Below, piece by piece: positions 1,951 to 45,544 of a DNA stretch of 52,924 nucleotides; position 1 is the stretch's first letter; every line of letters begins with the position of its first letter. Made by a program: the position numbers and the translations under genes. The notes beneath the pieces were generated by a model. The model did not search any database. It saw only the letters and a program-made list of their open reading frames with translations, and was not told where the DNA came from. Source of the stretch: a virus (taxonomy: Duplodnaviria; Caudoviricetes); the IMG/VR virus record IMGVR_UViG_3300002136_000057, positions 1 through 52,924 of that record; one strand, 5' to 3'.

Positions 1951-3246
1951 ATGAGCGTCAAAGGCAAGAAAAACTGGGAACCTAAAGAGCTTACTGAAGA
2001 AGAACTTAAAGTAATGCGAGTTGACGTACTTGATCGTATTATTGTAGCTCGTGTTGGTTTGTTGTTAAATCATCCATTTTTTGGTAATATGGCAACTCGT
2101 TTGCAGATCAAAAGTGCAGATGATTGGTTAGGCACAGCCGCAGTAGACGGACGTAATTTGTATTTTAATACTCAATTTTTTGATAAGATGTCTAACAAAG
2201 AAATTGAGTTTGTTATTGCACACGAAATTCTTCACTGTGTATTTGATCACTTAACTCGTAGAGAAGATCGAATTCCAAGAATTCATAACATTGCCGCAGA
2301 CTATATTGTAAACAACTTGCTTGTACGAGATCGTATTGGTACTAAACCTACGTTTATTGATTGCTATCAAGACTTTAAATATGATAAATGGTCTTCAGAA
2401 GACGTATACGACGATATCCTAGAAGATGCTAAGAAAAACGGTGAAGAGTTTCTTAAACAGCTAGGCGAATTGCTAGACGAGCATATCGACTGGGAAGGTG
2501 AAGGCGACGAAGGTCAAGGCAAAGATTCTAACGGAAACGGAGCAGACGGTAAAGAAAGCAAAAGCCGTCCTACATATTCTAAGGATGAGCTTAAAAAGAT
2601 CAAAGACGAGATCAAAGAAAATATGATTTCGGCAGCACAAACATCAGGTGCAGGTAATACGCCAGGTGAGATACAGCGTATGATCAAAGAACTCACTGAG
2701 CCTAAAATGAACTGGCGTGAAATGCTACGTCAGCAAATTCAAAGTACTGTACGCAACGATTACACGTTTAGTCGCCCAAGCCGTAAAGGACAGATGACTG
2801 GTGCTATTTTGCCGGGCATGAACTTTGACGAAACTATTGATATTTGTATTGCACTTGATATGAGTGGCTCGATTGGTGACGATCAAGCACGTGACTTCCT
2901 AAGCGAGATCAAAGGCATTATGGACGAGTACAAAGACTACAATATTAAATTGTGGTGCTTTGATACTAAAGTGTATAACGAGCAAGACTTTAGTGCAGAT
3001 GGTGGCGATGATTTGATGGACTATGAGATCAAAGGCGGTGGCGGTACTGACTTTGATGCTAACTGGACGTACATGAAGTACAATGATATCCAGCCTAAGA
3101 AGTTTATTATGTTTACAGATGGATATCCTTGGGATAGCTGGGGTGATGAAAGTTACTGCGATACTATCTTTATTATTCACAGTCATCGCGATAAGAACTT
3201 ACAAGCACCATTTGGGTTAACAGCACACTATGAGGACGCGGCTTGA
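1951..3246 (+). CDS. DUF2201-like putative metallopeptidase with C-terminal VWA domain
   Basis: HEILH (HExxH), acidic/Gly linker, MIDAS DMSGS, GGGGTDF and FTDG motifs. Confidence 0.88.
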   Translation: MSVKGKKNWEPKELTEEELKVMRVDVLDRIIVARVGLLLNHPFFGNMATRLQIKSADDWLGTAAVDGRNLYFNTQFFDKMSNKEIEFVIAHEILHCVFDHLTRREDRIPRIHNIAADYIVNNLLVRDRIGTKPTFIDCYQDFKYDKWSSEDVYDDILEDAKKNGEEFLKQLGELLDEHIDWEGEGDEGQGKDSNGNGADGKESKSRPTYSKDELKKIKDEIKENMISAAQTSGAGNTPGEIQRMIKELTEPKMNWREMLRQQIQSTVRNDYTFSRPSRKGQMTGAILPGMNFDETIDICIALDMSGSIGDDQARDFLSEIKGIMDEYKDYNIKLWCFDTKVYNEQDFSADGGDDLMDYEIKGGGGTDFDANWTYMKYNDIQPKKFIMFTDGYPWDSWGDESYCDTIFIIHSHRDKNLQAPFGLTAHYEDAA

Positions 3247-3521
3247 AACTTAAAGAGCCTAATGCACTAAACTTTTTTGAAGTACGGAGAGCAAATTTAC
3301 CTGCTCCGTACTTTGAATACATTTTATTGCCCACTAGATATAACTTAGAACAAAGTCTAGTTAAATGGATAGAACAAAACCTTAAGGGTAGATTCTATGT
3401 AGGAAAAACTATTGGTGTTACTAACACTAATAGCATTGAAAACATGACCAAGGTAGGATTTGAGGAAGCTAAAGAGCTTTCTTATTTCACTTTGGCATGT
3501 CCGTATTTAAAATATAATTAA
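3243..3521 (+). CDS. Phage hypothetical protein
   Basis: 92 aa ORF, TTG start overlapping the previous stop. Confidence 0.65.
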   Translation: MKLKEPNALNFFEVRRANLPAPYFEYILLPTRYNLEQSLVKWIEQNLKGRFYVGKTIGVTNTNSIENMTKVGFEEAKELSYFTLACPYLKYN

Positions 3522-4759: not shown

Positions 4760-6148
4760 ATGGCCTTACAAGTAAGACGCGGTACTAATGCAGAAAGATT
4801 AGGAATCACCCCCTTAGCAGGTGAATTAGTATATACAACAGACACAAAACAGCTATACGTAGGTGACGGTGCCACTGCTGGCGGTATTACCAGCATTGCA
4901 GGAACAATTGATTCACTACTAGCTGATACTACACCGCAACTAGGCGGAACACTAGACTTAAACGGTAATAATATTACAGGTACTGGTAATATTAACATTA
5001 ACGGTACTATTACTGCTACAGGAAATATTAACCTAGGTGACGGTATTGGTAGTGATATTGTTGTGTTTGGTGGAGCAATACAAGGACATCTTGTACCAGA
5101 TGCGGACATTACTTGGAATTTAGGATCTCCTACAAAACAATTTAACGAAGTATGGATTAGTCAACTCAATGTTGAAAATCAGCTTAATGCTAACAGAATT
5201 AATGCTAGTCTAATTGCAGATGATAGTACTGTAGTTTTTGATGCAACTGCTGGAACATTGCTTGCAAGCACATTAACTGGCACTGCTATAATTAATGTAA
5301 CTGGTAACGTAACTGGTAACGTAACTGGTAACGTAACTGGCAACTTAACTGGAAATGCTAACGGAGCACATACTGGTACATTTGATGGAGATTTGTCTGG
5401 AAGTGTGTTTGGAGATAATAGTACATTAATTGTTGACGGTATAAACAACACTGTACTTGTTAATGTTAGTAATGTTATTACTACAAGTTCAACATATACA
5501 CAAGGCGCAAATATTCGTGTCGGTGGGACAGGCAATGGAAACATAATATCGCTTCAAGACAATGTAGACAGTTCACTATTAATTATAACAACCGAAGATA
5601 CTGCTGGCAGTGTTATTATTTCTAGACCGTTACAAGTAGGAAGCAGTTCTGCGCTTGTCGCCGATGGCAAAGTGACTGTTATTACAGGTGTACAAAATTC
5701 AGCAGGCATTGTGCTAAGTGGTCATTTTGACGGTACCGGCAACACTATTTCTACAATTAGTAGATCAAGAGGAACAAAAGCTGCGCCTACTCCAATCCAA
5801 AACGGAGACGGTTTAGGTTCATACTTATTAACAGGTTATAATGGAGCTGCTTATAGAGTAGCAGGCGGTATTAAAGCAACTGTAGCAGGTACTCCACAAG
5901 CAGCATATATACCTTCTAATGTTGAAATATTTGTTGGTAACTCCTCCGGCGGTGCTGAGGTAATCCTCCAAGCAAAACAAGCTCAAAAAGTTACTGAATT
6001 TTTTGGTCCTGCAAAACTAGTATCATATGCTGATGCTGCTGCAAGAGATGCTGCTGTTACTGCTCCAGAAGCAGGTATGATGGTATTTAATACAACAAAT
6101 ACTAAGTTCCAAGGGTATAATGGTAGTGCTTGGGTAGACTTAAACTAA
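4760..6148 (+). CDS. Tail fibre / receptor-binding-like structural protein
   Basis: N-terminal LQVRRGT...GELVYTTDTKQLYVGDG (Mtd/hyaluronidase N-terminal type), DTTPQLGGTLDLNG, G/T/N-rich beta repeats, C-terminal GMMVFNTT..KFQGYNGSAW. Confidence 0.8.
   Translation: MALQVRRGTNAERLGITPLAGELVYTTDTKQLYVGDGATAGGITSIAGTIDSLLADTTPQLGGTLDLNGNNITGTGNININGTITATGNINLGDGIGSDIVVFGGAIQGHLVPDADITWNLGSPTKQFNEVWISQLNVENQLNANRINASLIADDSTVVFDATAGTLLASTLTGTAIINVTGNVTGNVTGNVTGNLTGNANGAHTGTFDGDLSGSVFGDNSTLIVDGINNTVLVNVSNVITTSSTYTQGANIRVGGTGNGNIISLQDNVDSSLLIITTEDTAGSVIISRPLQVGSSSALVADGKVTVITGVQNSAGIVLSGHFDGTGNTISTISRSRGTKAAPTPIQNGDGLGSYLLTGYNGAAYRVAGGIKATVAGTPQAAYIPSNVEIFVGNSSGGAEVILQAKQAQKVTEFFGPAKLVSYADAAARDAAVTAPEAGMMVFNTTNTKFQGYNGSAWVDLN
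5297..5356 (+). repeat. 12-bp in-frame tandem repeat (GTAACTGGTAAC) encoding VTGN
   Basis: Three perfect copies (5297-5332) plus two degenerate copies. Confidence 0.9.
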
Positions 6149-6154
6149 TATCAA

Positions 6155-6736
6155 ATGCATGATAGATACTTTATATTAGAAAATTTTAAAATATCTAAAA
6201 AACTTAAACAATCATTATTGTCTATAGATAAAAGGCGCTTTCGATACTACGGTATGAAAAGGAAGCGTCTTTTTATGTGTAATGTAGATTTATCATTAGT
6301 TCCGGAATTACAAGAAGTATTAAACAAATTCCAAGACCCTAATATTATAAGTAATTTTGAATTAATGTACACACAGTCCGGTACTATAGTAATGCCACAT
6401 ATTGATAGCAATCGTAATGCAGCTATTAATATTCCAATCGATGGAGATTTTAAAAACTCATATATTGGATTTTACAACAAAGGTACTCGTTTTGTACCTA
6501 ACATTGTTAATTCATCTGAAGGTGAAATTGTTGTTGGTGGGGGAGGATATCCAGGTGCTGTACTAATAGAGAAAGTATCTTATACATCGCCTATATGTTT
6601 AAATAATCAATCTATACATAATGTTGCAAATTTTTCAAAAAAAGATAGAGTAATATTAGGCGTTGGATTTAATACTTCATTAAACTATTTAGATATATTA
6701 AAATTGCATCAATCTAATAGGTTGACAACATCGTAA
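6155..6736 (+). CDS. Fe(II)/2OG oxygenase-like (cupin/DSBH) protein
   Basis: PHID...IHNV...DRVIL: HxD..H..R pattern. Confidence 0.7.
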   Translation: MHDRYFILENFKISKKLKQSLLSIDKRRFRYYGMKRKRLFMCNVDLSLVPELQEVLNKFQDPNIISNFELMYTQSGTIVMPHIDSNRNAAINIPIDGDFKNSYIGFYNKGTRFVPNIVNSSEGEIVVGGGGYPGAVLIEKVSYTSPICLNNQSIHNVANFSKKDRVILGVGFNTSLNYLDILKLHQSNRLTTS

Positions 6737-6750
6737 TAAGTTGTTATAAT
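6722..6750 (+). promoter_or_regulatory. Perfect consensus sigma70 promoter, probably giving a leaderless panD mRNA
   Basis: TTGACA (6722-6727), 17 bp, TG-t-TATAAT (6745-6750); ATG follows after 6 nt with no SD sequence. Confidence 0.85.
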
Positions 6751-6756
6751 AATGCT

Positions 6757-7113
6757 ATGAAAGAATATATACATGCAAAAATTCATAACATAAATGTCAC
6801 TGCTAAATCAATTGACTACCACGGTAGTGTAACTGTCTGTTCACATCTATTAGAGCAATCAGGTATAGATCACTATCAAAAAGTAGATATTGTAAATCTA
6901 AACAACGGTCATCGATGGACAACTTACACTGTTCCTGGGCCGCTAGGATCATTTGAATTGAATGGCGGCGGAGCAAGGCTAGGTGAAATTGGTGATAGAT
7001 GCGTAGTTATTGCATATGAAATGACGGATCAATTTGCTGGTTCAAAGGTGATCTTTTGCGATAAGTACAACAATATATCAAACACACTAACATACCTATT
7101 GGAGGAAAAATGA
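6757..7113 (+). CDS. panD: Aspartate 1-decarboxylase (pyruvoyl-dependent)
   Basis: AKIH, YHG/SVT self-cleavage site, NNGHRWTTY, LNGGGARL..GD.. motifs; typical length. Confidence 0.9.
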   Translation: MKEYIHAKIHNINVTAKSIDYHGSVTVCSHLLEQSGIDHYQKVDIVNLNNGHRWTTYTVPGPLGSFELNGGGARLGEIGDRCVVIAYEMTDQFAGSKVIFCDKYNNISNTLTYLLEEK

Positions 7114-8057
7114 AAACTATTAAGCTGCCCGGTTTTGGTTCTTTAGGAGCACAAGCCATTGATATCGATCTCAACACTGCAAGTGATTTAGACCTAATGG
7201 ATCTAGGTGCATTAGTTTTTAATGAACTAGTTGTTTATGTTGACGCTAAAGGTGCAAGTATAAGTCCGCAACGATATCATTACATACAATCTCTATGGGG
7301 CAACCCAGTTGTATCAAATGCACGACCTAAACTAGAAGAACTCATTAAGCAAGAAGGCATGACTAAACTTATTGCTGAAACGTTAAGTGACATTAAAAAA
7401 ATGCGGGGTGGGCTTGAAGATTTACGAGGCATGATTCGTGTTACAGGCATCAAGGACGAAAAAGGTAGACGAACAGGCATGTTTGCTGACGGTGAACTTG
7501 AATGGCACAGCAACCAACAAAGCGACAATAGTGGGTATGCTCCGCTAATTGGGCTTCAAGGTGTAGAAGGCACTGAAGGATCTAGCACAGAATTTTTGCA
7601 AACTGTAGATGCGTTTAACGACCTAAGTCAAGAATTGCAATCAGAAGTTAGAGAACTTATTGCTATTCACAGCTTTGATAAAGATAAAATTTGCAAGGGC
7701 ACGTCGGATTCACAAGCTCTTATTACACAGATGCACCTTGTTCCTAACGACGGGGCTGAGATGCCAGTTATTGCAACTGCTCCAAATAGCATGACCGGTA
7801 TGCATTTTCCGTGGACAAGTATTGTAGGATTCAAAGGATATTCACAAAAAGAATTTGAATCTTTATATACAACACTTGTTAACCATCTGTGGCAGGATAA
7901 GTATGTATATAAACATATGTGGAAAGACGGAGAAATTGTATGGATGGATCAAATAGTAACATTACACAGACGTCCTGGAACCGATACAGGAAAGAGATTA
8001 CTGCATCGCATGTGTTCAGATTGGAGTAATATACTTAATGACTCCTTACACTATTAA
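7110..8057 (+). CDS. TauD/TfdA-family dioxygenase (HxN variant)
   Basis: WHSN, TEFLQTVDAFNDLS, HMWKDGEIVWMDQIVTLHRR, RLLHR. Confidence 0.8.
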   Translation: MKTIKLPGFGSLGAQAIDIDLNTASDLDLMDLGALVFNELVVYVDAKGASISPQRYHYIQSLWGNPVVSNARPKLEELIKQEGMTKLIAETLSDIKKMRGGLEDLRGMIRVTGIKDEKGRRTGMFADGELEWHSNQQSDNSGYAPLIGLQGVEGTEGSSTEFLQTVDAFNDLSQELQSEVRELIAIHSFDKDKICKGTSDSQALITQMHLVPNDGAEMPVIATAPNSMTGMHFPWTSIVGFKGYSQKEFESLYTTLVNHLWQDKYVYKHMWKDGEIVWMDQIVTLHRRPGTDTGKRLLHRMCSDWSNILNDSLHY

Positions 8058-8742
8058 ATATGAAGACATAGATTCAAAAAATCTTAAAAAAGATCTATTA
8101 ACCCACGGCCTGTTATACATACCTTGCAAAAATGCACTGTCTATTGACGAATATAAAAAGATAACATCAAAATTAGGCAAGGCTCTTATTGCTAAAAAGC
8201 ATACATTAGATGACGATCGCCATGTACAATATGTAAGCGATAAAGGACTTTTTAGTAATACAGATGTTGACTGGCACAATGATTGGAGTTATGGTTCTGG
8301 AGATTATTTTGGAACGGTTCTTTATAACAATAAGAACGGACATCTAAGCACTACAGATTTTGTAGACATGCAGCAAGCATACAACATGTATTTAGACAAA
8401 GAATACTTAGAGAATACCTGTGGCGATTACTTTCCGCCACAGGGCCTGCACGAAAGTTGTTTTACTCCTCGTATGCTAAAGATACTTGAAAGAGCTAGAG
8501 TCACAAGAAAGTTTGCACATACACATCATATTACTGGAAATAAAGTTTTATATTTTAGTCCTGGGACATTACAATCAGATGTTGATATTGCACACTTGGT
8601 AGATTATTGCGAACAACAAGAAATTTATAAACACAATTGGCAAGATAACGACATACTTATATACGATAACATTCGCGTTATGCACAGACGGCACGCCTTT
8701 GAAGGTGAGCGTGAATTATGGAGAACACAGTTTTGGATATAA
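8038..8742 (+). CDS. TauD/TfdA-family dioxygenase
   Basis: WHND, TDFVDMQQAY, HNWQDNDILIYDNIRVMHRR, RELWR. Confidence 0.85.
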   Translation: MTPYTIKYEDIDSKNLKKDLLTHGLLYIPCKNALSIDEYKKITSKLGKALIAKKHTLDDDRHVQYVSDKGLFSNTDVDWHNDWSYGSGDYFGTVLYNNKNGHLSTTDFVDMQQAYNMYLDKEYLENTCGDYFPPQGLHESCFTPRMLKILERARVTRKFAHTHHITGNKVLYFSPGTLQSDVDIAHLVDYCEQQEIYKHNWQDNDILIYDNIRVMHRRHAFEGERELWRTQFWI

Positions 8743-9449
8743 GCAATAACGTTAAAATTAGAGGATTACTTGTATTCAATCATCTTTTAGGTGGTTATGC
8801 ACTATACACAGCATTTTCATGGAACTTGCTGTTGTTGTCGTATATTATTGGCTTTACGCTAGGCGGTGTTGGAATTAGTATAGGGTACCATAGATATTTT
8901 GCACATCGCACATTCAGTACCAATAAATTTTTTGAATACGCTTTATTAGCAATTGGTCATTATGCAAGTCTTGGTAGTGCAATTACTTGGGTAGGAGTTC
9001 ATCGAGAGCATCATGCTAACAGTGATACAGAAAACGATCCGCACAGTCCAAAGTATAATGGTGTATTAAGGACACTAATACACGTTTGGAAGCGTTACGA
9101 AATAAAATTAAAGTATATAAAAGATATGTTAAAAGACAATAAGCTAAAAATGCAGCATCAATATTATTTTTTAATCCTATTTGCATTTATAGTAGCATTG
9201 CTTCTGTTAGTTGGACCTGTATACGCTGCATACCTTTATTCTATTCCTGCTGCATACGTGTTTTATGCTACGGGCATTGTTAATAGTATAAATCACATTG
9301 GTGGTAAACCACATAATATACCATTGCTTAATCTAATTACAAGCGGCGAAAGCTATCATTTAAATCATCATAATGATTCAAAAGCGTGGAAGTTTGGAAC
9401 ATACGACCCGATGTCACCTATAGTTAGGATTATTAAAAATGAAAATTAA
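8718..9449 (+). CDS. Membrane fatty-acid desaturase (delta9-like)
   Basis: His boxes HRYFAH, HREHH, HLNHH; DPHSP; hydrophobic segments. Confidence 0.9.
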   Translation: MENTVLDISNNVKIRGLLVFNHLLGGYALYTAFSWNLLLLSYIIGFTLGGVGISIGYHRYFAHRTFSTNKFFEYALLAIGHYASLGSAITWVGVHREHHANSDTENDPHSPKYNGVLRTLIHVWKRYEIKLKYIKDMLKDNKLKMQHQYYFLILFAFIVALLLLVGPVYAAYLYSIPAAYVFYATGIVNSINHIGGKPHNIPLLNLITSGESYHLNHHNDSKAWKFGTYDPMSPIVRIIKNEN

Positions 9450-10227
9450 AGCATACCATAATGATACATTGTGGAGACTTGTAAATGTGTTAGCATTTTA
9501 TAGCATACCATTTTGTATATATTTGTTGTCAACACTTCCATTATACTATACTGCATTATCAATTATAAGTTGTATATTAATTGCAAAAGTAGGACACGGC
9601 ATTGCACAACATAGATATTTTGCACATCGTGCATTTAACACAGGCAAAAAACGCGAATGGATTCTTGCTTTCCTTGCAACACTAAGTAATACTGGTAGTA
9701 TAATTTATTTTGCTATTAATCATAGAATACATCATAATATTAGTGACAAAGACGGCGATCCTAATGACTCTACTAAATTAAGTTTGTTTGAAATACTTAC
9801 ACTTAAAATTAAAACAGACGATACAGAACATTTTAATTTAAACGTAGCAAAAGATCTATTAAAAAACAAATCAGCTAGATTTTTTCATAACTGGTATTGG
9901 CCGACTATATTTTTGTATTCCGCACTATTAATTTTAATTGATCCGTATTTGTTTGTAGTTATGTACTTGTTGCCACTTGGTTATTCTGTATCAATTATGG
10001 TGTTAGGTACTATAACAGGACATAAGTATGGTTATAGGAACTTTGATACTGACGATAAAAGCGTTAATAACTTTTGGGTTAACTTGTTGTTTCTGGGCGA
10101 AGGTAATCATAATAATCATCATTATAAACCATCTTCTTGGGATTCAGGATTTACAGGCAAGTGGACTGAATATGATATTGGGGCGCCAATTATAAAATAT
10201 ATATTCCTTAAAGGAGACTCGGTGTGA
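9439..10227 (+). CDS. Membrane fatty-acid desaturase (delta9-like)
   Basis: HRYFAH, HRIHH, GEGNHNNHH. Confidence 0.9.
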   Translation: MKIKAYHNDTLWRLVNVLAFYSIPFCIYLLSTLPLYYTALSIISCILIAKVGHGIAQHRYFAHRAFNTGKKREWILAFLATLSNTGSIIYFAINHRIHHNISDKDGDPNDSTKLSLFEILTLKIKTDDTEHFNLNVAKDLLKNKSARFFHNWYWPTIFLYSALLILIDPYLFVVMYLLPLGYSVSIMVLGTITGHKYGYRNFDTDDKSVNNFWVNLLFLGEGNHNNHHYKPSSWDSGFTGKWTEYDIGAPIIKYIFLKGDSV

Positions 10228-11141
10228 AAAAAATAAATTACTACGAACTTAAACCAGAAGATAATCATTTCAAAGTAATTTTTGTAGATCTAACACATCG
10301 GTGTAATATGGATTGTTTTAACTGTTATCTACCTAACAGAACTATTCCAGACATGGATGAAAATATGTTGTATAGTGTGTTAGAAAAATTACCCGAGCGA
10401 GCATACATACGATTAATAGGTGCAGAGCCTACACTAAGAAAAGACTTGCCCGATATCATACGCAAAGTTCTCGATCATGGTCATAAGCCTAGTGTAACTA
10501 CTAACGGATTAAAACTTGCAAGTTTAAAATATTGTCAAAAACTCCGAGATTCAGGGTTACGCATGATATTACTAAGCATGAACGGCGCAGATGAAAAACG
10601 CATATATGAAAAAATTGACAATCACAGTCATGCACACGATCTTAAAATGCAAGCATTAGAAAATTGCTTTAAGATTCCCGGATTTATTATTAACACTGGA
10701 ACTATTATTGCTAAAGGTGTGAACGAACATACGCTACGCAGACAAGCAGACATTGTTGCCGACTTAAACGAAAAATATAAACCCAAAGTTACTCCTGTTT
10801 TACGAGTTAAAAATATTGGAGACTTAGGCCGTTATATGCAAGGTCATACTATGAGTTTTGAAGAACTAGTTGATATTGCAAGTAGTCAACTAGATATTCC
10901 AAAGAGTGTTATTAAAGCGCAGCGAGTGGAATCTGGAACAAATAAAATTACTAAAAATAACTACGGTGAAAGTTATCTATTTGAATATAGAGGTGTATTC
11001 ATACGCTTAATTAATTGGAATGAGGAAGACGAGTTAAACGACGGTGGCATCAATGGAAGTATGAATCGTGGCAGATTAACAAGCGATGGTATGATTGCAC
11101 CATGCTGGGAACACATTAAATTAAACGAATACGGATATTAA
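10224..11141 (+). CDS. Radical SAM protein, MoaA-like but lacking a complete twitch Cys set
   Basis: CNMDCFNC, GAEP, TTNG, C-terminal RLTSDG..PC. Confidence 0.85.
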   Translation: MKKINYYELKPEDNHFKVIFVDLTHRCNMDCFNCYLPNRTIPDMDENMLYSVLEKLPERAYIRLIGAEPTLRKDLPDIIRKVLDHGHKPSVTTNGLKLASLKYCQKLRDSGLRMILLSMNGADEKRIYEKIDNHSHAHDLKMQALENCFKIPGFIINTGTIIAKGVNEHTLRRQADIVADLNEKYKPKVTPVLRVKNIGDLGRYMQGHTMSFEELVDIASSQLDIPKSVIKAQRVESGTNKITKNNYGESYLFEYRGVFIRLINWNEEDELNDGGINGSMNRGRLTSDGMIAPCWEHIKLNEYGY

Positions 11142-11142
11142 A

Positions 11143-11751
11143 ATGCAAGTTATTAAATTAGATGAAACTTACAAAGATCAATTTTATAATTTTACAACTA
11201 CACAACTTACTGCTAAAGGCCTTATCAACGACCCCTATTGGAATAATATAGAATGGATTAATGAACAGAGAAACATCTATGCTGCTGTAGACGAAAATAG
11301 TAATTTTTTGATGACAATGGCATCAAATCATACTCCTGTTAGAAATATGCCTTGGAGATACGGTGATACACAAATTAGTGCGTCCAGCAGCAGCCTTCGT
11401 CAAAATATAGAAACAACTAAAAATTTAATTAGGAGTGTGCTTACGGATTGTGAAGAACAAGGAATATGGGGGCATTGGTTTATTTCAGATCATCGAAAAA
11501 TTAAAGTTCAAAATAAGAAAAGTGTAGAAACTACTATAACCAAAGATCGAGTAGGTAGATTTGCTGTTCCTTATATAGAGGTATTTGAAGATTATAATTT
11601 ACATGATGTAGCAATCATTAAAAAAGGATGTAAATCAGGTATTCCATTATACGATTGTTTAGTAAAAGCTCCCGTTCCGTATGATGTACTAATTAGATTT
11701 GTAACTAGAAAATATCAATATTTTAGAGACAACGTTCCAACCTATGGCTAA
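11143..11751 (+). CDS. Hypothetical protein, possible divergent GNAT fold
   Basis: 202 aa ORF in the operon; N-terminal pattern loosely GNAT-like, no decisive motif. Confidence 0.45.
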   Translation: MQVIKLDETYKDQFYNFTTTQLTAKGLINDPYWNNIEWINEQRNIYAAVDENSNFLMTMASNHTPVRNMPWRYGDTQISASSSSLRQNIETTKNLIRSVLTDCEEQGIWGHWFISDHRKIKVQNKKSVETTITKDRVGRFAVPYIEVFEDYNLHDVAIIKKGCKSGIPLYDCLVKAPVPYDVLIRFVTRKYQYFRDNVPTYG

Positions 11752-12883
11752 TATTTTATTAAATTATCAAACTAGCAATCTAAGATATGCTGTAGAAGAA
11801 CTAAAAGAACATAATCTATATTCTTGGAGAGCGCTAGGTATGGAGTTTGCAAAAACTATTTCTCCAAACATACATTTGAATATTATTGAAAATTTAGATA
11901 TTTACAAATCTGATAGAAAAGAAATAATAGACGAAGTATTTAATTATTATCAAGATATCGATCTTATTTTTCCACTGTATAACGACATGCTTTTTCCTTA
12001 CTTGTATAAAAAGTTAGGATTTACTGATAAACAATGCAACATATTATCTAGTAAGCAAGCGTATACTGCTTTTGCAAAAAGTGTAGGAGTAACAGTTCCA
12101 AACACGTATACTGATATCAAACAAGTGACTTACCCTATTATTGCTAAACCAGTAAACGGTACAGGAAGTATTGGGGTCAAGGTATTAAATGACTACAGTG
12201 AATATTTCTTTTTTGCTTCTGGAGAAGATATACAGTATAACGACCTAGGCAAGCATTACATCTTCCAAGATTTTATAGACGGACCTACTATTAGTTGTGC
12301 TGGTAGAATTGTAGACGGTGATATATTATTTGATTGTGTATACACTATTGAATCAAGTGATCTACCATACAGAGCAGAAACTGGATTTTTGCTCAACAGT
12401 TATTACAAAAATACAGATCCTATAAAAGAACAAATAGAAAAGTTAAGTAACGGTTTAGAACTAACTAACTGTGCATGGATGGCTGACTTTATAAGTGGTA
12501 GAGATGGACAATTTTATTTGGTAGATTTTAGTCCTAGACTAAGTGTAAGTGCGCAAGTGTTAATTAAACACAGTGCAGGCATTGATTATAACAAACTTAT
12601 TGTAGATAGTTTACTATACAAAGATAAAACAAAAGTGCATTTAGATAAGTGCGTAGTTTATAAATATTTTGATGTAGCAAAGGGTAAACATAAAGTAGAA
12701 TTTAGAGGCGATGCTACACTTGCTGATGAATTAACATTGCCTGCAGAACAGTCCTATTTGACACGCATGGATATGCTAATGGGATCTAAAGGATTTTGCG
12801 TTACATCAGGTGCTACACTAACCGAAGCCCATGATAAATGGCAAACAATAGCAAGCGATATAATAATAACTAAACTGGACTAA
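11744..12883 (+). CDS. ATP-grasp ligase
   Basis: YPIIAKPVNGTGSIGV, FQDFIDG, DFSPRLS (variant of ExNPR). Confidence 0.85.
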   Translation: MANILLNYQTSNLRYAVEELKEHNLYSWRALGMEFAKTISPNIHLNIIENLDIYKSDRKEIIDEVFNYYQDIDLIFPLYNDMLFPYLYKKLGFTDKQCNILSSKQAYTAFAKSVGVTVPNTYTDIKQVTYPIIAKPVNGTGSIGVKVLNDYSEYFFFASGEDIQYNDLGKHYIFQDFIDGPTISCAGRIVDGDILFDCVYTIESSDLPYRAETGFLLNSYYKNTDPIKEQIEKLSNGLELTNCAWMADFISGRDGQFYLVDFSPRLSVSAQVLIKHSAGIDYNKLIVDSLLYKDKTKVHLDKCVVYKYFDVAKGKHKVEFRGDATLADELTLPAEQSYLTRMDMLMGSKGFCVTSGATLTEAHDKWQTIASDIIITKLD

Positions 12884-13574
12884 AGTCTCTTAGTGTTATG
12901 TAATTAGGTCTATCTGTTTTTGTAGTCTTATTATCAACAGAATTGTAGCATATAAACAACACATTCCTGTCCTTAGAGCTTGTATTACGCCCGCTAGTGT
13001 GCCACATATTAGCATGCATCACATACACATCTCCTGCTTCGCCCAGCACTGTGTGACGCTGTAATCCAGTCATAGACACCATATTTTCGGTTATCATACC
13101 GTCTGTTTCGTTAGCATCATGCTTAATAGTCCAAGTTTTAGTCTTCTTTTCAACAAGAAAATTTTCACTGCCCGGTAATACTTCTAGGGGGCCGTTTTCT
13201 AATGTCATGTCATCTAACAAGAATAATAAACTTAATGCATTAGGAGCCGGCATACCGTCGTGTGCTTGCCAAAAAGTGTAATCACTATGCCATGCATACT
13301 CGCCTCCTATGTTTGCGGATTTATAATTAAAATGCACTTGATGAGTATAAACATCTGTTTCTAAGATATCTTTAACTATATCTATCATAGGATTGTTATT
13401 GACAAACTCTTTTAACGTATTGTCAACCCAGTGAGGAGCAAATATGCTTCTTACTGTTGACTGATCGTCTTCATATATAAATGTTTCTTTATTATTAATA
13501 GTTTTTAAATCTTCTGCAATTTTCTTAATTGGTAGTGAATTAAAAACAGTTTTATACAACTTGCTTGAAAACAT
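12870..13574 (-). CDS. PhyH-family dioxygenase, ectoine hydroxylase (EctD)-like
   Basis: YAWHSDYTFWQAHDGMP resembles the EctD signature; LDDMTLENGPLEVLPGS, WHTSGRN, RNVLFICYNSV. Confidence 0.85.
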   Translation of the reverse strand: MFSSKLYKTVFNSLPIKKIAEDLKTINNKETFIYEDDQSTVRSIFAPHWVDNTLKEFVNNNPMIDIVKDILETDVYTHQVHFNYKSANIGGEYAWHSDYTFWQAHDGMPAPNALSLLFLLDDMTLENGPLEVLPGSENFLVEKKTKTWTIKHDANETDGMITENMVSMTGLQRHTVLGEAGDVYVMHANMWHTSGRNTSSKDRNVLFICYNSVDNKTTKTDRPNYITLRDFSPV

Positions 13575-14158
13575 TATACTAACAAATCGCCATATTCATA
13601 CATGTCTTTTAACCGCTGATATGTAAATTCTTCTTTAAAACTTAAAGACAATATATATCTATCATCGGCTGTAGAATTAGTTACTCCGTGAATAACTTGG
13701 GTATCAAAGCATATTGGTACTTCATATGAAACTAATTCCACTAACTCAGCAGACGCACAGGACCTAGCAGTAGTTACTTCTACAGATGTACCATCTGGCA
13801 AGTTAAGAGAAGATGTGTGCGTCGGCGGTGAATTAGTTGTATTTTCGTAAAAGTCTACTGTACTATTTTTAAAATTTCCGCAAATTGGTAAATTCATAGT
13901 AACAAATCTATCATGATCTGCGTGGGGAGCCACTATGCCATTGGCCTTGACCATGTTAAATTCAATTTTTTTAAAAAGAGTTTTTGGATTTTTAAATTTG
14001 ATTGCGATAGGAATTATTGTTTCGCGCTTTGGAAACCCTATGTGTATTTTGAATCTTCCAGTTCCATAATAAGACCATTCGGTGTATGATTTCATTACAT
14101 TCTCTAATTCAATGCGTTCATTTTCGTAATTTAAGTCAGGTAATAAAAAATATGTCAT
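13574..14158 (-). CDS. Fe(II)/2OG oxygenase-like protein, paralog of 6155-6736
   Basis: PHAD...IHGVTN...DRYIL. Confidence 0.7.
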   Translation of the reverse strand: MTYFLLPDLNYENERIELENVMKSYTEWSYYGTGRFKIHIGFPKRETIIPIAIKFKNPKTLFKKIEFNMVKANGIVAPHADHDRFVTMNLPICGNFKNSTVDFYENTTNSPPTHTSSLNLPDGTSVEVTTARSCASAELVELVSYEVPICFDTQVIHGVTNSTADDRYILSLSFKEEFTYQRLKDMYEYGDLLV

Positions 14159-14222: not shown

Positions 14223-14600
14223 ATGAAAAAAGTAAGTTTTAAATTTTCTAGTTTAGCAAATACTATTGAAGAATTTTATACTTCAAAACTAGACAAACTG
14301 ACAGAAGACGAATTTGTTTCTGTCTTTAATACAATGCGTACTGCTGTTAATAACGGTGATGTATGGCTTAGAAGTTATTTTATCGAAGACGGAAAAGCAA
14401 ATTTGGTTTGGTTTTTAGATAGCGATACTTCGATAATCAATGTACAATCAGCAATTGATATTTTAGTTACAATCGACGATTACATCGAGCATACTATCGA
14501 TTCTTCCACTTTTGAAGAGTTTGCTGCGTATGCGGCATCTAATGAAGACACTGATATTTCGCACCCTCGTATAGAAGCTATAAACGAGTTAAACAATTAA
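14223..14600 (+). CDS. Acidic hypothetical protein
   Basis: AGGAG RBS, late-type box upstream, 125 aa. Confidence 0.7.
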   Translation: MKKVSFKFSSLANTIEEFYTSKLDKLTEDEFVSVFNTMRTAVNNGDVWLRSYFIEDGKANLVWFLDSDTSIINVQSAIDILVTIDDYIEHTIDSSTFEEFAAYAASNEDTDISHPRIEAINELNN

Positions 14601-15438
14601 TTAATTCGTCAATAGACAGTTCAAATACTCCATTGTAATTTTCTTGAAGACTTGATGTAATATTCAAGGCTTTTTCGTGCCAAGATGTTTCTTGTATTTT
14701 TTCCCAGCCAGTGTATTTTTCTCTAGGAATAAAATTAAAACTGTCGCTATAAATTTTAATTTTACTTGTTCTTGTGCTAAGTTTTCCTGGCAATTTATTA
14801 GCTACTAAGTCTTTAACTAAAGAGTCATTTGTAAATGCCAATACCATTTCTGGAGTATACCGTAAAAAATCAGGAGTACCGTTTATATTGTAGTTACTAT
14901 AAAAGTTATTGTATGCATTTACTTTTTCAGTTTCTTGCCAAACCCAGTTACCTTCATAATTTTTAAAATATGGTTCGCCATTGGCCATGATGACTGTGCC
15001 ATCAAATAATGTTAGCCCTTTCATTACAGGTATCATTTGATGAGCGCAGCATTTTACATTTACTGCAATATCTTCAAATTCTCCGCTTGAGATTAATTTT
15101 TCAATATCAACACTAACTGTTATTGGATTAATATTATGATGGTTGCAATACTCGTAAGCATATTTTGTGTCATGTGTATTCCATCCATTGTAGTCAATTA
15201 TTCCAACTTTAAATTCTACGGCCGCTTCTGTAAATACTCGAATCATAAACTCACTGTCGAGGCCGCCGCTAAATAATAGTATAATAGGACCGCTTGCTTC
15301 TTTACTTATAATTTGGGCAGCACGTATACATTCTGCTTTCCAAGAGCCTAGAGAATTGCTAGTAGATCTTTTTAAATGTACAGCCCATTCGGATCCGTGT
15401 CCGGAAAAAGTGATATAATTAAGATAGGACAAATGCAT
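14578..15438 (-). CDS. PP-loop (N-type ATP pyrophosphatase / asparagine synthetase-like) protein
   Basis: LLFSGGLDSE motif; C-terminal PREKYTGWE. Confidence 0.75.
   Translation of the reverse strand: MHLSYLNYITFSGHGSEWAVHLKRSTSNSLGSWKAECIRAAQIISKEASGPIILLFSGGLDSEFMIRVFTEAAVEFKVGIIDYNGWNTHDTKYAYEYCNHHNINPITVSVDIEKLISSGEFEDIAVNVKCCAHQMIPVMKGLTLFDGTVIMANGEPYFKNYEGNWVWQETEKVNAYNNFYSNYNINGTPDFLRYTPEMVLAFTNDSLVKDLVANKLPGKLSTRTSKIKIYSDSFNFIPREKYTGWEKIQETSWHEKALNITSSLQENYNGVFELSIDELINCLTRL
15411..15419 (+). promoter_or_regulatory. Extended -10 promoter inside the opposite-strand gene
   Basis: TGATATAAT 13 nt upstream of ATG 15433. Confidence 0.5.
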
Positions 15439-16104
15439 ACATTTTCACCAATTGATTTTGACTTTGATCAAACTACGATTTATAACGAACTTATAGAGTT
15501 TGGTATTTTTGATCGTAGCAATCTTGCTACTGTTATTTACACTCAAGGTCGCAGCAAGTACGACAAAGATGGTGTGTTTGATGATTATCAAGATGTAATT
15601 CACTACGACGAAAGTGGCATATTAGTAAAGCAGAAATATAAAACATTTGTAACTTATAACTTTACACACTTGCCGGGTGTAAATGATACTATCGAAAATT
15701 CATTTGTAGACACCGATGTCGGAAGGCGCCCAGTTTGGCATGTTTACGATCAACTATGGCAATGGAAAGACGATACTCCCGACTGCATTAAAGAAGTTGT
15801 AAACAAATTAAATTTAACGTATGTAAGTTGTGTTAGGCTTGTTGGACAGACTCCTCCAAGCAAAGGAATTGTGCATGTTGATGCTAATTTTAAAGATAAT
15901 TTAAAATATTATAAAAACGGTGGAGTTAGTATTACACTAAATGTTTCAGACGGCGGCGGCCATTTAGAATATAAGGTTGGAGACGAAATACATACAGTTG
16001 ACGAATCAAAATACAAATGTTGGTATTTTAATGATGCATTACCGCATAGAACAACAGAAATTTTTACTCCAAGAATACAATTAAGGATATTTGGAAGAAA
16101 ATGA
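15433..16104 (+). CDS. Fe(II)/2OG oxygenase-like protein (start revised from 15376)
   Basis: VHVD...LPHRT...RIQLR; in-frame ATG at 15433 avoids most of the overlap with the minus-strand gene. Confidence 0.7.
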   Translation: MHTFSPIDFDFDQTTIYNELIEFGIFDRSNLATVIYTQGRSKYDKDGVFDDYQDVIHYDESGILVKQKYKTFVTYNFTHLPGVNDTIENSFVDTDVGRRPVWHVYDQLWQWKDDTPDCIKEVVNKLNLTYVSCVRLVGQTPPSKGIVHVDANFKDNLKYYKNGGVSITLNVSDGGGHLEYKVGDEIHTVDESKYKCWYFNDALPHRTTEIFTPRIQLRIFGRK

Positions 16105-16811
16105 TAGACTGGCGTAATTTAATATTTTCACCTTTAGCACTGCCCGATCCTCCCGAAGTTGATATGGATGAATTTATTTCATGGCATGCTGATCAAAAAG
16201 CATTTATGCTACAGCACAATCAAAACAAGGTCAACAGTACAAACATATACGGTGGGTATTGCTGGCACATCAGTTGGGCAATTTGGTGGAATACTTATAA
16301 TTTAGATAATCCATGGATATGTGACTTTGACAAAAGACTTCCTGAACTTACTGAATATATTAAGTTATTTCCATTTAAAAAAATAAAAAGCATTAGTTTT
16401 CTTAATCAAATAGGCGGTGCTACAGTTGAGCCGCACAGCGACCCTGACAGCATGTGGGGTATGCGATTTTATCTAAAAAATAAAACCAAGGATGCGTTGT
16501 ACTTTAGTAGAATGAAAGAACCTAATAATTTTAGAATTGCTACTATGGAGGACGAAAACGGCAATGCATTAATCCAAAGGAAAAATCATTTAGAGTTTTG
16601 CAGAGATGAAAAAATATATGCACAATTTCCTAAAGATAAATGTGCATGGATGCTTAACAGTCATCGAGCTTGGCACGGACTTGATAAGAATACTTCACCT
16701 ACAGGTAGCAGAATTACCTGCGCAATCATAGGCGAGTACGATGAAGAAAAGTTATTTAATTTACTAGAAAATAGTACGCAACAGCACAGCAAATATCAGA
16801 TTTGGTTTTAA
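16101..16811 (+). CDS. Fe(II)/2OG oxygenase-like protein
   Basis: PHSD...WHG...RIT. Confidence 0.7.
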   Translation: MIDWRNLIFSPLALPDPPEVDMDEFISWHADQKAFMLQHNQNKVNSTNIYGGYCWHISWAIWWNTYNLDNPWICDFDKRLPELTEYIKLFPFKKIKSISFLNQIGGATVEPHSDPDSMWGMRFYLKNKTKDALYFSRMKEPNNFRIATMEDENGNALIQRKNHLEFCRDEKIYAQFPKDKCAWMLNSHRAWHGLDKNTSPTGSRITCAIIGEYDEEKLFNLLENSTQQHSKYQIWF

Positions 16812-16812: not shown

Positions 16813-17427
16813 ATGACAGTATTATACACACCTTTAGATTTACCTGCACTAGACTTTAATAGAGAAGAATTTATAAAGTGGCATGAAGAGAAGCGTCATA
16901 GGAATAGAGGTAATATTAATTACGATAAAAAAGACTTTATTGCCCCGTGGCTAGTTAGCTTTGCATATCATGTTGACTACGGCTGGTGCAATAGATTTTT
17001 AAAAGTTATTCCTAATTTTCAAGACATACTGTACACCTACCTACCATATACAGATATTACATATGTTAACTTTTTAGAACAAAAAATTCCGTGTCAGTTA
17101 CATCAAGATGTAGGGTCTCGTCCGGACGAAGAAGATGAGCCTGGCGCTTATAAAGCGTTTATGGTATATGATGCGCCGCTGATGTATTTTCAAGAAGGTA
17201 AAACTAAAGATACAATCAAAGAAGATAAGTTATACATTGATCATCCTAATAATTTAACAAAATGGTTTGCAATTAATAACCACGATGCATACCATGCTGC
17301 TGATTTGCCTCAAGAAGGACAACGTAAGATTATTATGACAATACTTGGTAAATTAGATAAAACAAAACATAAAGAAATACTATCTCGTAGTTTAGAAAAG
17401 TATAAAGACTATCTAATTACAGTTTGA
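16813..17427 (+). CDS. Fe(II)/2OG oxygenase-like protein, paralog of the preceding gene
   Basis: LHQD...YHAA...RKII; shared N-terminus (PL.LP....EFI.WH). Confidence 0.7.
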   Translation: MTVLYTPLDLPALDFNREEFIKWHEEKRHRNRGNINYDKKDFIAPWLVSFAYHVDYGWCNRFLKVIPNFQDILYTYLPYTDITYVNFLEQKIPCQLHQDVGSRPDEEDEPGAYKAFMVYDAPLMYFQEGKTKDTIKEDKLYIDHPNNLTKWFAINNHDAYHAADLPQEGQRKIIMTILGKLDKTKHKEILSRSLEKYKDYLITV

Positions 17428-18878
17428 ATATAACTATCAATTATTTTCTTTTTATTATCTTTTAACATCTGTGCAGGCAACATATTACGCATACCGTTAT
17501 GATCTGCATAGTGCTTATCTAAGTCTAATCCTAAGCTAGTAACGCCGCCACAACTCCATCCAGCAACTTTCTGATATTCGTTGTCCATATTACGTAAATC
17601 TTCAGCAATTTTTCCTGCTTTAATTGCATTCATATGATCATTTTTCCAGACCGTCATCCAAGCATTTGTTTTGCCAGCTAATGTAGTTTTAAGCAATCGT
17701 TGCTGATGATGAACTTTATATCCAAATTTTTCAGGATTTCTATCGATTGGCGAATGATATTCGTGATGTTCTTTTGAATGTATAAGCAACGGATACCAGT
17801 ACCATAAGTCAATATTAGGATCTGCAACTACACGTTCTCTACTTGCTCTAATATTTTCTTCGCTTTGGTGCGGCAACCCTACAATAAGATTAATTTGAAC
17901 TTTAACTTGTTCTTGACTCTTTTGTTTCATAGAAGCAATAGCATCAAGAACTTTATCAATGTCTGCACCTTTTTGGATTGCCTGTCTAGTTTCTTTATTA
18001 TAACTTTCTACACCAAAACTTGCACCACGAAGACCTGACTCAATTAGTAAATCAATTTGATCAGGCCATCTTACTAATAATTCAGGTTTAATGTAAGTAT
18101 CAAATTTAATTTTAAACGGTAAACTTGTAATAACTTCGTGCATTAATTCTAATTTAACCATACTATCGTTGTAGGTGTCATCCATAAACCAATAATTAGT
18201 TGTTCCAAATTGTTCATAGTTACGCATAAACTCTGCGTACATGTCTTCTTTGGCACGAATATAATCAAATTTGCTTTTATTGTTTAATGGAAAGTTACAA
18301 AACGCACAATTAAAAATACAACCCCTTGCAATTTCCATAGGTAAACTTTGCTGTGCAGTAATGCCGTCTTCAGGTTTCCATATTACTGGAATATTATTAA
18401 TGTCTTTTTTGTCATACGAATGATTACTGTCGACGATTTTTTTGCCTTTGTAATCTTTAAAGATTAAATTAGTATCCTTACCTGCAAGATAATTTGTAAT
18501 TGCAACTGTTGCATCGTCTGCGTATCCAGTGACAAATATATCAGCAAAGTCTAAAAATTCAACCATTCCTTTGGCACCGCCTATAACAAATGGAACATTA
18601 AAGCGGTTTCTCAAATTAGTGTAAAACTTAGTGTTATCTTGCAATAGCTCACTAGTGTTAAAAAATGTAGTACTAAATCCTACCCAAAGCGTTTCTTTGC
18701 TTACATACTTTTCAAATGCAAGTTCGATATCTTCTTCTGTTAAACTTTGAAAATAGTCAATAACTTTTACTGAATACCCTTGCTGTTCTAGTTCTGTTCT
18801 AATGCGATAAGCACCAATAGACCTAAAATAAGTAGTTTCGCCTAGATCAATACCTGTAAATATTACTGCGTGATACAT
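17409..18878 (-). CDS. Cobalamin-binding radical SAM protein (class B methyltransferase-like)
   Basis: N-terminal B12-domain pattern (GAYRI..L...GY.V.VID, VGFS, GG, GYAD), EIARGCIFNCAFC, DDTYN, GVES, IVGLP. Confidence 0.85.
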   Translation of the reverse strand: MYHAVIFTGIDLGETTYFRSIGAYRIRTELEQQGYSVKVIDYFQSLTEEDIELAFEKYVSKETLWVGFSTTFFNTSELLQDNTKFYTNLRNRFNVPFVIGGAKGMVEFLDFADIFVTGYADDATVAITNYLAGKDTNLIFKDYKGKKIVDSNHSYDKKDINNIPVIWKPEDGITAQQSLPMEIARGCIFNCAFCNFPLNNKSKFDYIRAKEDMYAEFMRNYEQFGTTNYWFMDDTYNDSMVKLELMHEVITSLPFKIKFDTYIKPELLVRWPDQIDLLIESGLRGASFGVESYNKETRQAIQKGADIDKVLDAIASMKQKSQEQVKVQINLIVGLPHQSEENIRASRERVVADPNIDLWYWYPLLIHSKEHHEYHSPIDRNPEKFGYKVHHQQRLLKTTLAGKTNAWMTVWKNDHMNAIKAGKIAEDLRNMDNEYQKVAGWSCGGVTSLGLDLDKHYADHNGMRNMLPAQMLKDNKKKIIDSYIQTVIR

Positions 18879-26276: not shown

Positions 26277-26305
26277 ATTATAGCATCCATTTCATGTTGC
26301 GTCAA
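26277..26305 (-). promoter_or_regulatory. Sigma70 promoter, probably leaderless
   Basis: Minus strand TTGACG, 17 bp, TG-c-TATAAT; ATG follows after 5 nt. Confidence 0.8.
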
Positions 26306-43997: not shown

Positions 43998-44005
43998 TAT
44001 TTATA
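43998..44005 (-). promoter_or_regulatory. T4-type late promoter TATAAATA
   Basis: Exact T4 late consensus, overlapping the upstream stop codon, ahead of a GAGGA RBS. Confidence 0.7.
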
Positions 44006-45512: not shown

Positions 45513-45535
45513 ATTTAAATAACCCCTTGCTGTTA

Positions 45536-45544
45536 GTATTTATC
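45536..45544 (-). promoter_or_regulatory. Late-type box GATAAATAC
   Basis: Intergenic, upstream of the tail gene RBS. Confidence 0.6.

Follow-up and report, generated by a model that had tools for sequence, protein, structure and literature searches.

An operon of eight genes in a 52,924-bp virus record from IMG/VR (IMGVR_UViG_3300002136_000057, Caudoviricetes; the whole record is called the window below) consists of a three-gene core, encoding a PanD-like aspartate decarboxylase, a protein that we term X and an ATP-grasp ligase, and of a variable insert that here holds two TauD-family genes, two membrane desaturase-family genes and a radical SAM gene. The operon is real, conserved, recurrent and modular, and is undescribed in the literature that we searched. 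On our preferred reading, beta-alanine would be made on site by PanD and ligated into an amide, dipeptide-like product, which the inserted cassette would tailor or for which it would supply the partner. We give this reading a probability of about one half, on the basis of gene content, motifs, linkage, modularity and promoter conservation, which are observed, and of folds obtained by prediction.

Operon layout and the three-gene core

An earlier note on this DNA, made from the sequence alone, had described eight tightly coupled, co-oriented genes behind a perfect σ70 promoter, and our analysis confirms both the genes and the promoter. The eight open reading frames (ORFs) lie on the plus strand between 6757 and 12883 (Table 1) and are tightly packed, with six overlaps (4, 20, 25, 11, 4 and 8 nt) and one 1-nt gap; starts were set at the first start codon, so some of the overlaps may be overestimates. 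The gene families named in the earlier note are borne out by Pfam, every named match exceeding its cut-off (25 bits for PF02261, 23.2 bits for PF02655), with two amendments: the protein that it had listed as unknown has a predicted GNAT fold, and the first TauD-family protein (TauD1) lacks the carboxylate ligand.

The promoter agrees with the consensus at all 12 positions, is the sole such site between 4000 and 16000 and overlaps the 3′ end of the upstream gene u193. Weaker promoter-like sites in the same interval occur at chance level (59 found versus 55.4 ± 8.3 in shuffled sequences). The promoter is conserved in all nine loci whose upstream sequences were aligned: none of the nine differs in the −35 TTGAC, in four of the six −10 positions or in the distance from promoter to ATG, and the spacer is variable. 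As the −10 element ends 6 nt before the PanD ATG, leaving no room for a ribosome-binding site, the operon mRNA is probably leaderless. This host-type σ70 promoter would drive a translationally coupled, probably leaderless mRNA, with early expression by the host RNA polymerase. Elsewhere in the window, a second consensus-like promoter (TTGACG-17-TATAAT, 26277–26305, minus strand) lies 5 nt before the ATG at 26271 of a further radical SAM gene (25156–26271), which is another probably leaderless unit.

ATP-grasp-anchored scans yielded 10 viral loci and, with the metagenomic contig L012, 11 loci in total, among which L007, L009 and L011, and likewise L006 and L012, are near-duplicates. Every locus with upstream coverage has PanD (10 of 10; L006 is cut), and X occurs in 11 of 11 (10 by tblastn and the divergent L008 copy by hhalign, at 97.8%). 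A gene for a PhyH-family oxygenase, convergent with the operon, is present in all 8 related loci that reach past the ATP-grasp gene. The genes between PanD and X differ from locus to locus. L002, L003, L005 and the L007/L009/L011 group have nothing there; L012 has TauD2 and the radical SAM gene (L006 is cut within TauD2); L004 and L010 have TauD1, TauD2, Des1 and the radical SAM gene; the window has these four and Des2; and L008 has a cupin-like ORF, with sulfotransferase-like genes flanking its operon. Since the content between PanD and X varies while the core stays, the operon is nested, a three-gene core (PanD, X and ATP-grasp) with a variable insert. The earlier note had proposed looking for the same gene set in other genomes; the core is found in related loci, with up to four of the inserted genes in L004 and L010, but Des2 was seen only in the window, and 9449–10227 has no DNA match in either of those two loci. 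Identity to the window is 90% for the ATP-grasp enzyme of L002 and L003 and 86–87% for the radical SAM enzyme of L004 and L010. Such natural variants, with three to eight genes, could link individual genes to product structure.

In the L008 variant, a Sulfotransfer_2 gene lies upstream of PanD (2775–3374 of that locus; 34 bits, over the cut-off) and a Sulfotransfer_3-like gene after the ATP-grasp gene (5993–6745; 22.6 bits, under the cut-off), which suggests sulfation as an alternative tailoring step.

The arrangement also recurs in independent data. At least 0.89 of the window's sampled words are present in 19 DNA runs from six studies, runs labelled as marine or aquatic metagenomes, and contigs from three DNA runs of three studies, no run among them being flagged as the source, bridge every gene junction of the operon with 0 differences. 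Because independent contigs span all junctions in this way, the arrangement is not an assembly chimera; and because it recurs in marine and aquatic metagenomes of several studies, the product is probably made in the sea. A metatranscriptome run, X20, holds 0.09 of the window's words, with eight contigs of 90–99% likeness on the end of the radical SAM gene, X and the ATP-grasp gene; contigs from an RNA library are no proof of transcription, and the parts left uncovered in X20 carry no meaning. Searches with the operon and with 30000–52924 (blastn and megablast) returned no DNA match in the 'phages' collection.

PanD and its amide-ligase partners

A metabolic gene in a phage is commonly taken to act on its own, boosting a pathway of the host. 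In that vein, PanD might raise the host's beta-alanine for pantothenate and CoA, with the other genes as unrelated cargo that shares its promoter, and the protein itself is compatible with such a role, retaining all the residues for ordinary aspartate decarboxylation. Its best match in the PDB is 3oug (1.4e-15), one of 25 PanD chains that match, and all 8 orthologues share K8, Y21, G23-S24, R53, T56, Y57 and N69, which align with the PanD of 3oug; we take their roles in self-cleavage and in the active site to be those of Escherichia coli PanD.

The linkage of PanD points elsewhere. A PanD-anchored scan of viral contigs, which uses peptide patterns and can miss other viral PanDs, gave 13 viral loci, nine on the same contigs as the ATP-grasp loci and four from another lineage (L021–L024, of which L022 and L023 are nearly identical). 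In all 13, an ATP-dependent amide ligase lies beside PanD or shortly downstream of it: ATP-grasp in nine and Amidoligase_2 in four. In L021–L024, PanD is 43–46% identical to that of the window, and amide-ligase genes follow it directly; they comprise three Amidoligase_2 domains in a 589-amino-acid tandem protein and a 288-amino-acid protein. The differences are substantial. Amidoligase_2 (PF12224) is not an ATP-grasp family, neither X nor the oxygenase cassette is present, and the neighbours are of other kinds: UvdE lies upstream of PanD, and the Amidoligase_2 genes are followed by two unknown ORFs, a 5′–3′ exonuclease gene and LuxE/LuxC-like genes (for example in L022, 8001–15484). Two independent viral lineages thus couple PanD, a textbook candidate for a booster, to an amide ligase, which suggests that the phages direct the making of a specific compound containing beta-alanine.

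Pantothenate genes do not accompany PanD. The earlier note had reported neither panB nor panC in the window, and we likewise found neither there; nor does any PanC exceed its cut-off in the window or in five related records, one of which includes the syntenic 335-kb contig L012. The association of PanD with an amide-forming ligase, and not with pantothenate genes, is thus supported by comparison, not by chemistry. Two further observations suit the booster explanation. Among 15 'phages' records of cultured phages that match PanD, the two inspected, Rhodococcus phage Jace and Achromobacter phage 2-1, have a PanD unaccompanied by any recognisable ligase (in Jace, the neighbours gp86 and gp88 show no relation to ATP-grasp or X by hhalign), so ligase coupling is not a universal rule; and in related phages the slot that the operon occupies holds different cargo, a radical SAM–TauD cassette behind the same type of promoter in L082. 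Against that explanation, PanD, X and the ATP-grasp gene stay together in every covered syntenic locus while the intervening genes vary, the second lineage joins PanD to a non-homologous amide ligase, and no PanC over its cut-off was found in the records named above. We regard a plain auxiliary metabolic gene as improbable here. No literature linking a phage PanD with an ATP-grasp enzyme or an amidoligase was found, although a mention in supplements is possible.

The position of PanD elsewhere brings up another alternative, in which beta-alanine or a derivative would be placed on bases of phage DNA or RNA, with the ligase, the GNAT-fold protein and the radical SAM enzyme acting as in known base-modification pathways. 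PanD stands among replication and repair genes in Achromobacter phage 2-1 (between RNaseH and DNA polymerase) and in L022 (UvdE and the 5′–3′ exonuclease), and the window has a weak QueC-like ORF near the operon (14578–15438; E 0.00096; 19.2 bits, below the cut-off of 22). Yet family searches detected no base-modifying transferase, kinase or glycosylase in the operon, which lies here among structural and accessory genes and not among replication genes, and its ATP-grasp enzyme resembles amino-acid ligases. Nucleic-acid hypermodification is accordingly the explanation to which we attach least probability, a very small one.

The ATP-grasp enzyme is nearest, in sequence and in predicted fold, to L-amino-acid (dipeptide) ligases (Lals), and ligation activity is predicted for it. 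Sequence matches in the PDB begin with the Lal BL00235 (3vot, 8.6e-5), followed by Ddl (3r23, 0.0023). An AlphaFold2 (AF2) model (pLDDT 86.5) likewise has 3vot as its first Foldseek match (TMq 0.79–0.81), with YwfE/BacD and RizA within the top 12; PurD, PurK, biotin carboxylase and PylC follow closely in this ranking, so that the assignment to Lals within ATP-grasp enzymes is not exclusive. Across the Lal pathways compared (BL00235, 3vot; BacD/YwfE of bacilysin, 3vmm and 3wnz; RizA, 4wd3), fold TMq is 0.69–0.81. The window's enzyme also shares with Lals its stand-alone form of about 380 amino acids and its place in an operon with amino-acid-modifying enzymes, but identity in the fold alignments is only 13–14%. 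We know of no Lal in a phage and of none that is coupled with PanD.

All 96 relatives of the ATP-grasp enzyme (39–92% identity) come from metagenomes. A search for longer relatives, which is weak evidence, showed no fused forms; tblastn against the collection of cultured phages gave no match for this enzyme or for TauD2, and neither PanD nor the ATP-grasp enzyme has a PHROG family.

The proposed logic, in which beta-alanine and a partner give an amide at the cost of ATP, is also that of PanC and of carnosine synthase. Carnosine synthase is an ATP-grasp enzyme. PanC, by contrast, has a fold that differs from ATP-grasp, and no PanC was found here.

Protein X and the nested cassette

Protein X has no match in Pfam, NCBIfam or PHROG. 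Its AF2 model, built from only eight sequences, has a pLDDT of 78.2 and a pTM of 0.73 and gives 171 PDB matches in Foldseek at E ≤ 1e-3, the top 50 listed all being GNAT acyltransferases (TMq 0.47–0.60). A Foldseek search of BFVD gave 35 matches at the same threshold, several of them named GNAT, and a feature search of the Atlas led to a GNAT-named cluster (score 0.95). X is, on these predicted structures, a new GNAT-fold protein family, and one confined to these phages; only 16 representatives at E ≤ 1e-3 are found among 1.84 billion proteins. By hhalign it is unrelated to the window's other GNAT protein (22101–22676).

The family is also unusually variable. No other copy exceeds 39% identity to the window's X, and identity between most loci is 22–39% (up to 69% in close pairs), compared with 59–80% for PanD. 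All four comparisons show DNA similarity ending at 11142 and returning at 11740–11744, so that X is, by its sequence boundaries, a discrete hypervariable cassette. A 522-nt contig from a marine metatranscriptome library contains 11744–11809 without differences and is unlike the window upstream of 11744; a loose end at this position is as expected if a relative carries another X cassette.

A small GNAT-fold protein next to PanD recalls the PanD–PanZ (PanM) pair of enterobacteria, and X might be a factor of that kind, triggering or regulating the self-cleavage of PanD instead of acting as a transferase in the pathway. Such a role would involve X alone and could hold alongside any of the other readings. 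The PanD activator of E. coli, PanZ, is a small GNAT-fold protein, X has the same predicted fold, and X always accompanies PanD. X differs from PanZ, however, in its length of about 200 amino acids, its hypervariability, far beyond that of its supposed partner PanD, and its coupling to the ATP-grasp gene, which it always abuts and overlaps, while inserts fall between PanD and X; nor does X show sequence similarity to any PDB chain. To our knowledge, most PanDs outside enterobacteria mature with no such factor. A predicted complex of PanD with X scored 0.01, which counts neither for nor against binding. We consider a PanZ-like role for X quite doubtful.

Within the insert, the two TauD-family proteins differ at the iron site. 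TauD2 has an intact H80-N-D82 ... H216, with HxD in 15 of the 15 clade members found. In TauD1, HxD is replaced by H133-S-N135 (HSN in 3 of 3 close orthologues), leaving no iron-binding carboxylate ligand and the 2-His-1-carboxylate triad incomplete. A motif scan that left this position free found 31 members of the TauD1 clade, of which 28 have HxA, three HSN and none HxD/E; in the free-standing cassettes, the more distant members carry H-[SC]-A. Fe(II)/2-oxoglutarate (2OG) halogenases show the pattern HxA/G where HxD/E would otherwise stand. The TauD1 clade resembles these enzymes (SyrB2, WelO5 and BesD types) in lacking the carboxylate, but its fold family is TauD/TfdA and the window's copy has HxN, outside the halogenase HxA/G motif. 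This widespread clade may be a new lineage of halogenases. Hydroxylation is also within the reach of a 2-His site, human AspH being an example (PMC10947486). The earlier note's analogy with the isonitrile synthase ScoE is not supported: NF049937 gives 16.8 bits versus a cut-off of 400, and only residues 11–67 match.

Des1 and Des2 have the histidine boxes HRYFAH/HREHH/HLNHH and HRYFAH/HRIHH/HNNHH, respectively, and hydrophobic segments (35–56 and 145–179 in Des1). A third desaturase-family gene of the window, Des3 (19452–20204, minus strand), has them too, and the six other operon proteins have no such segments. The earlier note had mentioned the acetylenase JamB, but a specific acetylenase reading is not supported, as these proteins show only generic stearoyl-CoA-desaturase-type boxes; against the DesA-family equivalog NF049918, Des1 and Des2 score 56.1 and 60.4 bits, below the cut-off of 400.

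The radical SAM protein has the motif C27-x3-C31-x2-C34 and only three further cysteines (104, 148 and 294), with no SPASM match and no SPASM/twitch auxiliary-cluster cysteines. Its PDB sequence matches are led by GDGT-MAS (7tol, 1.9e-17), then BlsE, MoaA and PqqE. It has 511 relatives at E ≤ 0.001, and only three weak matches in cultured phages (tblastn, 23–28%). A metagenome scan gave 446 relatives, from which 80 loci were kept (L034–L113); a TauD2-like gene is adjacent in 56 of them and a TauD1-like gene in 32. Seventeen loci extend 4 kb or more to either side of the radical SAM gene, and of these 13 show a free-standing cassette of radical SAM, Y, TauD1 and TauD2 and two a nested one; the free-standing form is thus common in marine metagenomes. 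Protein Y (168–212 amino acids), which follows the radical SAM protein in the free-standing cassettes, has no detectable relation to X, and neither Y nor its neighbours match a Pfam family.

The proposed pathway, its surroundings and known systems

We picture the pathway as follows. PanD would cleave itself at G23-S24 and decarboxylate L-aspartate to beta-alanine; the ATP-grasp enzyme would activate a carboxylate as acyl phosphate and form an amide between beta-alanine and a second, amino-acid-like partner. X could acylate a free amine of substrate or product, or protect against the product, and its hypervariability would diversify specificity. The convergent PhyH-family oxygenase, whose best PDB matches are EctD (3emr, 1.3e-32) and the leucine hydroxylase GriE (5nch, 1.3e-26), is probably part of the core pathway and would hydroxylate the amino-acid partner or the product. 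The nested cassette would be a plug-in module that works alone elsewhere and here yields an oxidised or rearranged ligase partner or tailors the amide. Two membrane desaturase-like enzymes would imply a hydrophobic part in this variant; an acyl part is suggested by these genes only. In a more far-reaching form, which we think unlikely as a whole, the cargo slot, equipped with a promoter and lying behind the Mtd-like receptor-binding gene, would combine a fixed core of PanD, a Lal-type ATP-grasp enzyme and a new, fast-evolving and specificity-setting GNAT family with mobile tailoring cassettes (the hitherto undescribed carboxylate-less TauD-fold clade, radical SAM and membrane di-iron enzymes), giving a halogenated or hydroxylated beta-alanyl (lipo)dipeptide for phage–host or phage–phage conflict.

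Several points weigh against our preferred reading, in addition to the two cultured phages whose PanD stands with no recognisable ligase. We infer every chemical step, the step order and the biological role from family resemblance. PanD scores 75.2 bits against the NCBIfam equivalog TIGR00223, below the cut-off of 106, and is thus a divergent member. For X, a profile search of PDB sequences gave 0 matches, no GNAT model matches in sequence, the distant relative P0119 matches only Acetyltransf_9 (E 0.11), and the acetyl-CoA loop motif (Q/R-x-x-G-x-G/A) is not evident by eye at residues ~80–90 of the eight-sequence alignment, where the strand–helix junction is expected. The cassette may have nothing to do with beta-alanine: PanD or ATP-grasp is present in only 4 of the 80 radical SAM loci and X in 5. 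No transporter was seen among the ORFs scanned. Finally, the operon has receptor-binding genes on one side and tail-fibre genes on the other, and its island encodes many radical SAM/SPASM and AspH-like enzymes, a context that fits macromolecule modification as well. The earlier note had likewise preferred an amide product to a CoA-boosting role for beta-alanine; the linkage of PanD to a ligase, the absence of any PanC over its cut-off and the Lal-like ATP-grasp enzyme favour that view, but the link between cassette and beta-alanine is facultative, as the cassette mostly occurs without PanD.

On the macromolecular alternative, the ATP-grasp enzyme would put beta-alanine or another residue on a virion protein (receptor-binding or tail-fibre) or on the host envelope (peptidoglycan stem, lipid or polysaccharide), and the oxygenases, radical SAM enzyme and GNAT would decorate the target, so as to alter adsorption, block superinfection or harden the virion. 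The setting is in keeping with this. The operon follows a protein with an Mtd_N domain and a variable C-terminal part, tail-fibre-like genes occupy 44001–52879 of the window, and the island encodes no fewer than nine additional radical SAM proteins, of which three have SPASM domains, along with two AspH-like hydroxylases and a GNAT; enzymes of these types often act on peptides or lipids. The three membrane desaturase-like genes need a lipid-like substrate, X varies as a specificity element would, and Iyer et al. 2021 (PMC7824862) proposed that cyanophage clusters of comparable composition decorate the host surface. On the other side, the nearest sequence and fold relatives of the ATP-grasp enzyme ligate free amino acids, and the enzymes closest to the PhyH neighbour are hydroxylases of ectoine or free amino acids. 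The consensus host-type promoter would suggest early and not late (virion) expression. No glycosyltransferase, carrier-protein or precursor-peptide gene was seen in the operon, and the window has only six intergenic gaps of more than 60 nt. We hold this alternative possible, though clearly less probable than synthesis of a beta-alanine-containing small product.

The same cyanophage clusters are the nearest described kind of system. As described (Iyer et al. 2021, PMC7824862), they are variable clusters with 2OG and cupin oxygenases and an amino-acid halogenase, for which a secondary metabolite or host-surface or capsule decoration was proposed. Like the operon, they belong to large marine phages, hold several oxygenases and vary between related phages. 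They are built on carbamoyltransferases, a HemK-like methylase and HAD phosphatases and share none of the operon's core genes; PanD and ATP-grasp are both lacking, as are radical SAM and desaturase, and the text of the paper mentions no aspartate decarboxylase, radical SAM or desaturase.

Table 1. Positions of the promoter, the operon genes and other features; positions refer to the window unless a locus is named
Feature	Position	Strand	Evidence or remark
u193, cupin-like oxygenase candidate directly upstream of operon	6155–6736	+	weak Asp_Arg_Hydrox, E 0.088; H82-I-D84
σ70-type promoter, TTGACA-17-(TG)TATAAT	6722–6750	+	12/12 consensus; TG before −10
PanD-like, 118 amino acids, core	6757–7113	+	PF02261, 101.4 bits
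TauD1, TauD/TfdA family, nested cassette	7110–8057	+	PF02668, 63.9 bits
TauD2, short TauD-family oxygenase, nested cassette	8038–8742	+	PF02668, 75.7 bits
Des1, integral-membrane desaturase/hydroxylase family, nested cassette	8718–9449	+	PF00487, 52.2 bits
Des2, desaturase-family paralogue, nested cassette	9439–10227	+	PF00487, 53.9 bits
Radical SAM, 305 amino acids, GTG start, nested cassette	10224–11141	+	PF04055, 56.3 bits
X, predicted GNAT-fold protein, 202 amino acids, core	11143–11751	+	no Pfam match; predicted fold
ATP-grasp ligase, predicted L-amino-acid-ligase type, 379 amino acids, core	11744–12883	+	PF02655 (ATP-grasp_3), 29.2 bits
PhyH-family oxygenase, convergent, outside the noted operon	12870–13574	−	PF05721, 93.5 bits; H96-S-D98
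u194, cupin-like oxygenase candidate	13574–14158	−	weak Asp_Arg_Hydrox, E 0.011; H79-A-D81, HxD...H
Further radical SAM gene	17409–18878		weak B12-binding match
Further radical SAM gene	25156–26271	−	
Further radical SAM gene	26941–28020		
Further radical SAM gene	28013–29179		
Further radical SAM gene	29157–30236		
Further radical SAM gene	30229–31410		
Further radical SAM gene	33031–34443		
Further radical SAM gene	34452–35519		29.1 bits, just under cut-off
Further radical SAM gene	38193–39545		
Free-standing cassette in L040	8001–11063 of L040		radical SAM, Y, TauD-fold HxA, TauD-fold HxD
Free-standing cassette in L082	8001–11063 of L082		radical SAM, Y, TauD-fold HxA, TauD-fold HxD

The window is a linear record with a CheckV completeness of 7%, a G+C content of 30–41% and no tRNA genes found. 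Among cultured phages, the closest relatives of its MoxR-like ATPase and DUF2201 protein belong to jumbo phages (PA5oct-like, RaK2 and others; ~37–42% identity), and for this reason, together with the tail-fibre-like genes, we take the window as a fragment of an uncultured marine jumbo phage. Contig L012 (PBPT01000016.1, 335 kb), from a metagenome-assembled genome labelled Ca. Neomarinimicrobiota and the only genome contig to match, is syntenic with the window from MoxR to u244. As 150 other Ca. Neomarinimicrobiota genomes contain no orthologue of the operon's radical SAM gene (best score 75.6 bits), L012 is probably the genome of a jumbo phage, close to complete, that was binned with bacterial sequences, and we do not take it as evidence of a host.

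Gene order around the operon is shared among related loci: MoxR, DUF2201, u208 and the Mtd_N protein upstream, and PhyH (−), u194 (−), u125, QueC-like (−), u242, u236, u204, B12-radical SAM (−), Des3 (−) and GNAT (−) downstream. The Mtd_N (major tropism determinant N-terminal) protein (4760–6148), whose gene immediately precedes the cargo slot, is likely to bind the receptor; between loci, its N-terminal 34 amino acids are 65–79% conserved and its C-terminal part is 37–59% identical. By sequence comparison, this slot carries alternative cargo in related phages, as L082, from the same phage group, holds the free-standing cassette there behind a TTGACT-17-TATAAT promoter. The genes u193 (193 amino acids) and u194 (194 amino acids) are paralogues that flank the operon and probably encode further cupin-type oxygenases.

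Two adjacent genes further downstream (16101–16811 and 16813–17427) are paralogues with ~24–26% identity by tblastn. Few genes of the region are as well conserved between loci (72–85% and 53–90%); they match no family, and an Atlas search placed them in viral hypothetical clusters with a faint 2OG-oxygenase lead (0.90). Des3 is 70–98% conserved in the related loci that reach that far, and its only relatives in cultured phages are in Pelagibacter phage Mosig (31.5%) and an Acinetobacter phage MAG (27.2%). The further radical SAM genes, at least nine between 17409 and 39545, lie mostly on the minus strand; in three of them (28013–29179, 29157–30236 and 33031–34443), the SPASM domain precedes the radical SAM domain in the protein, which reverses their usual arrangement.

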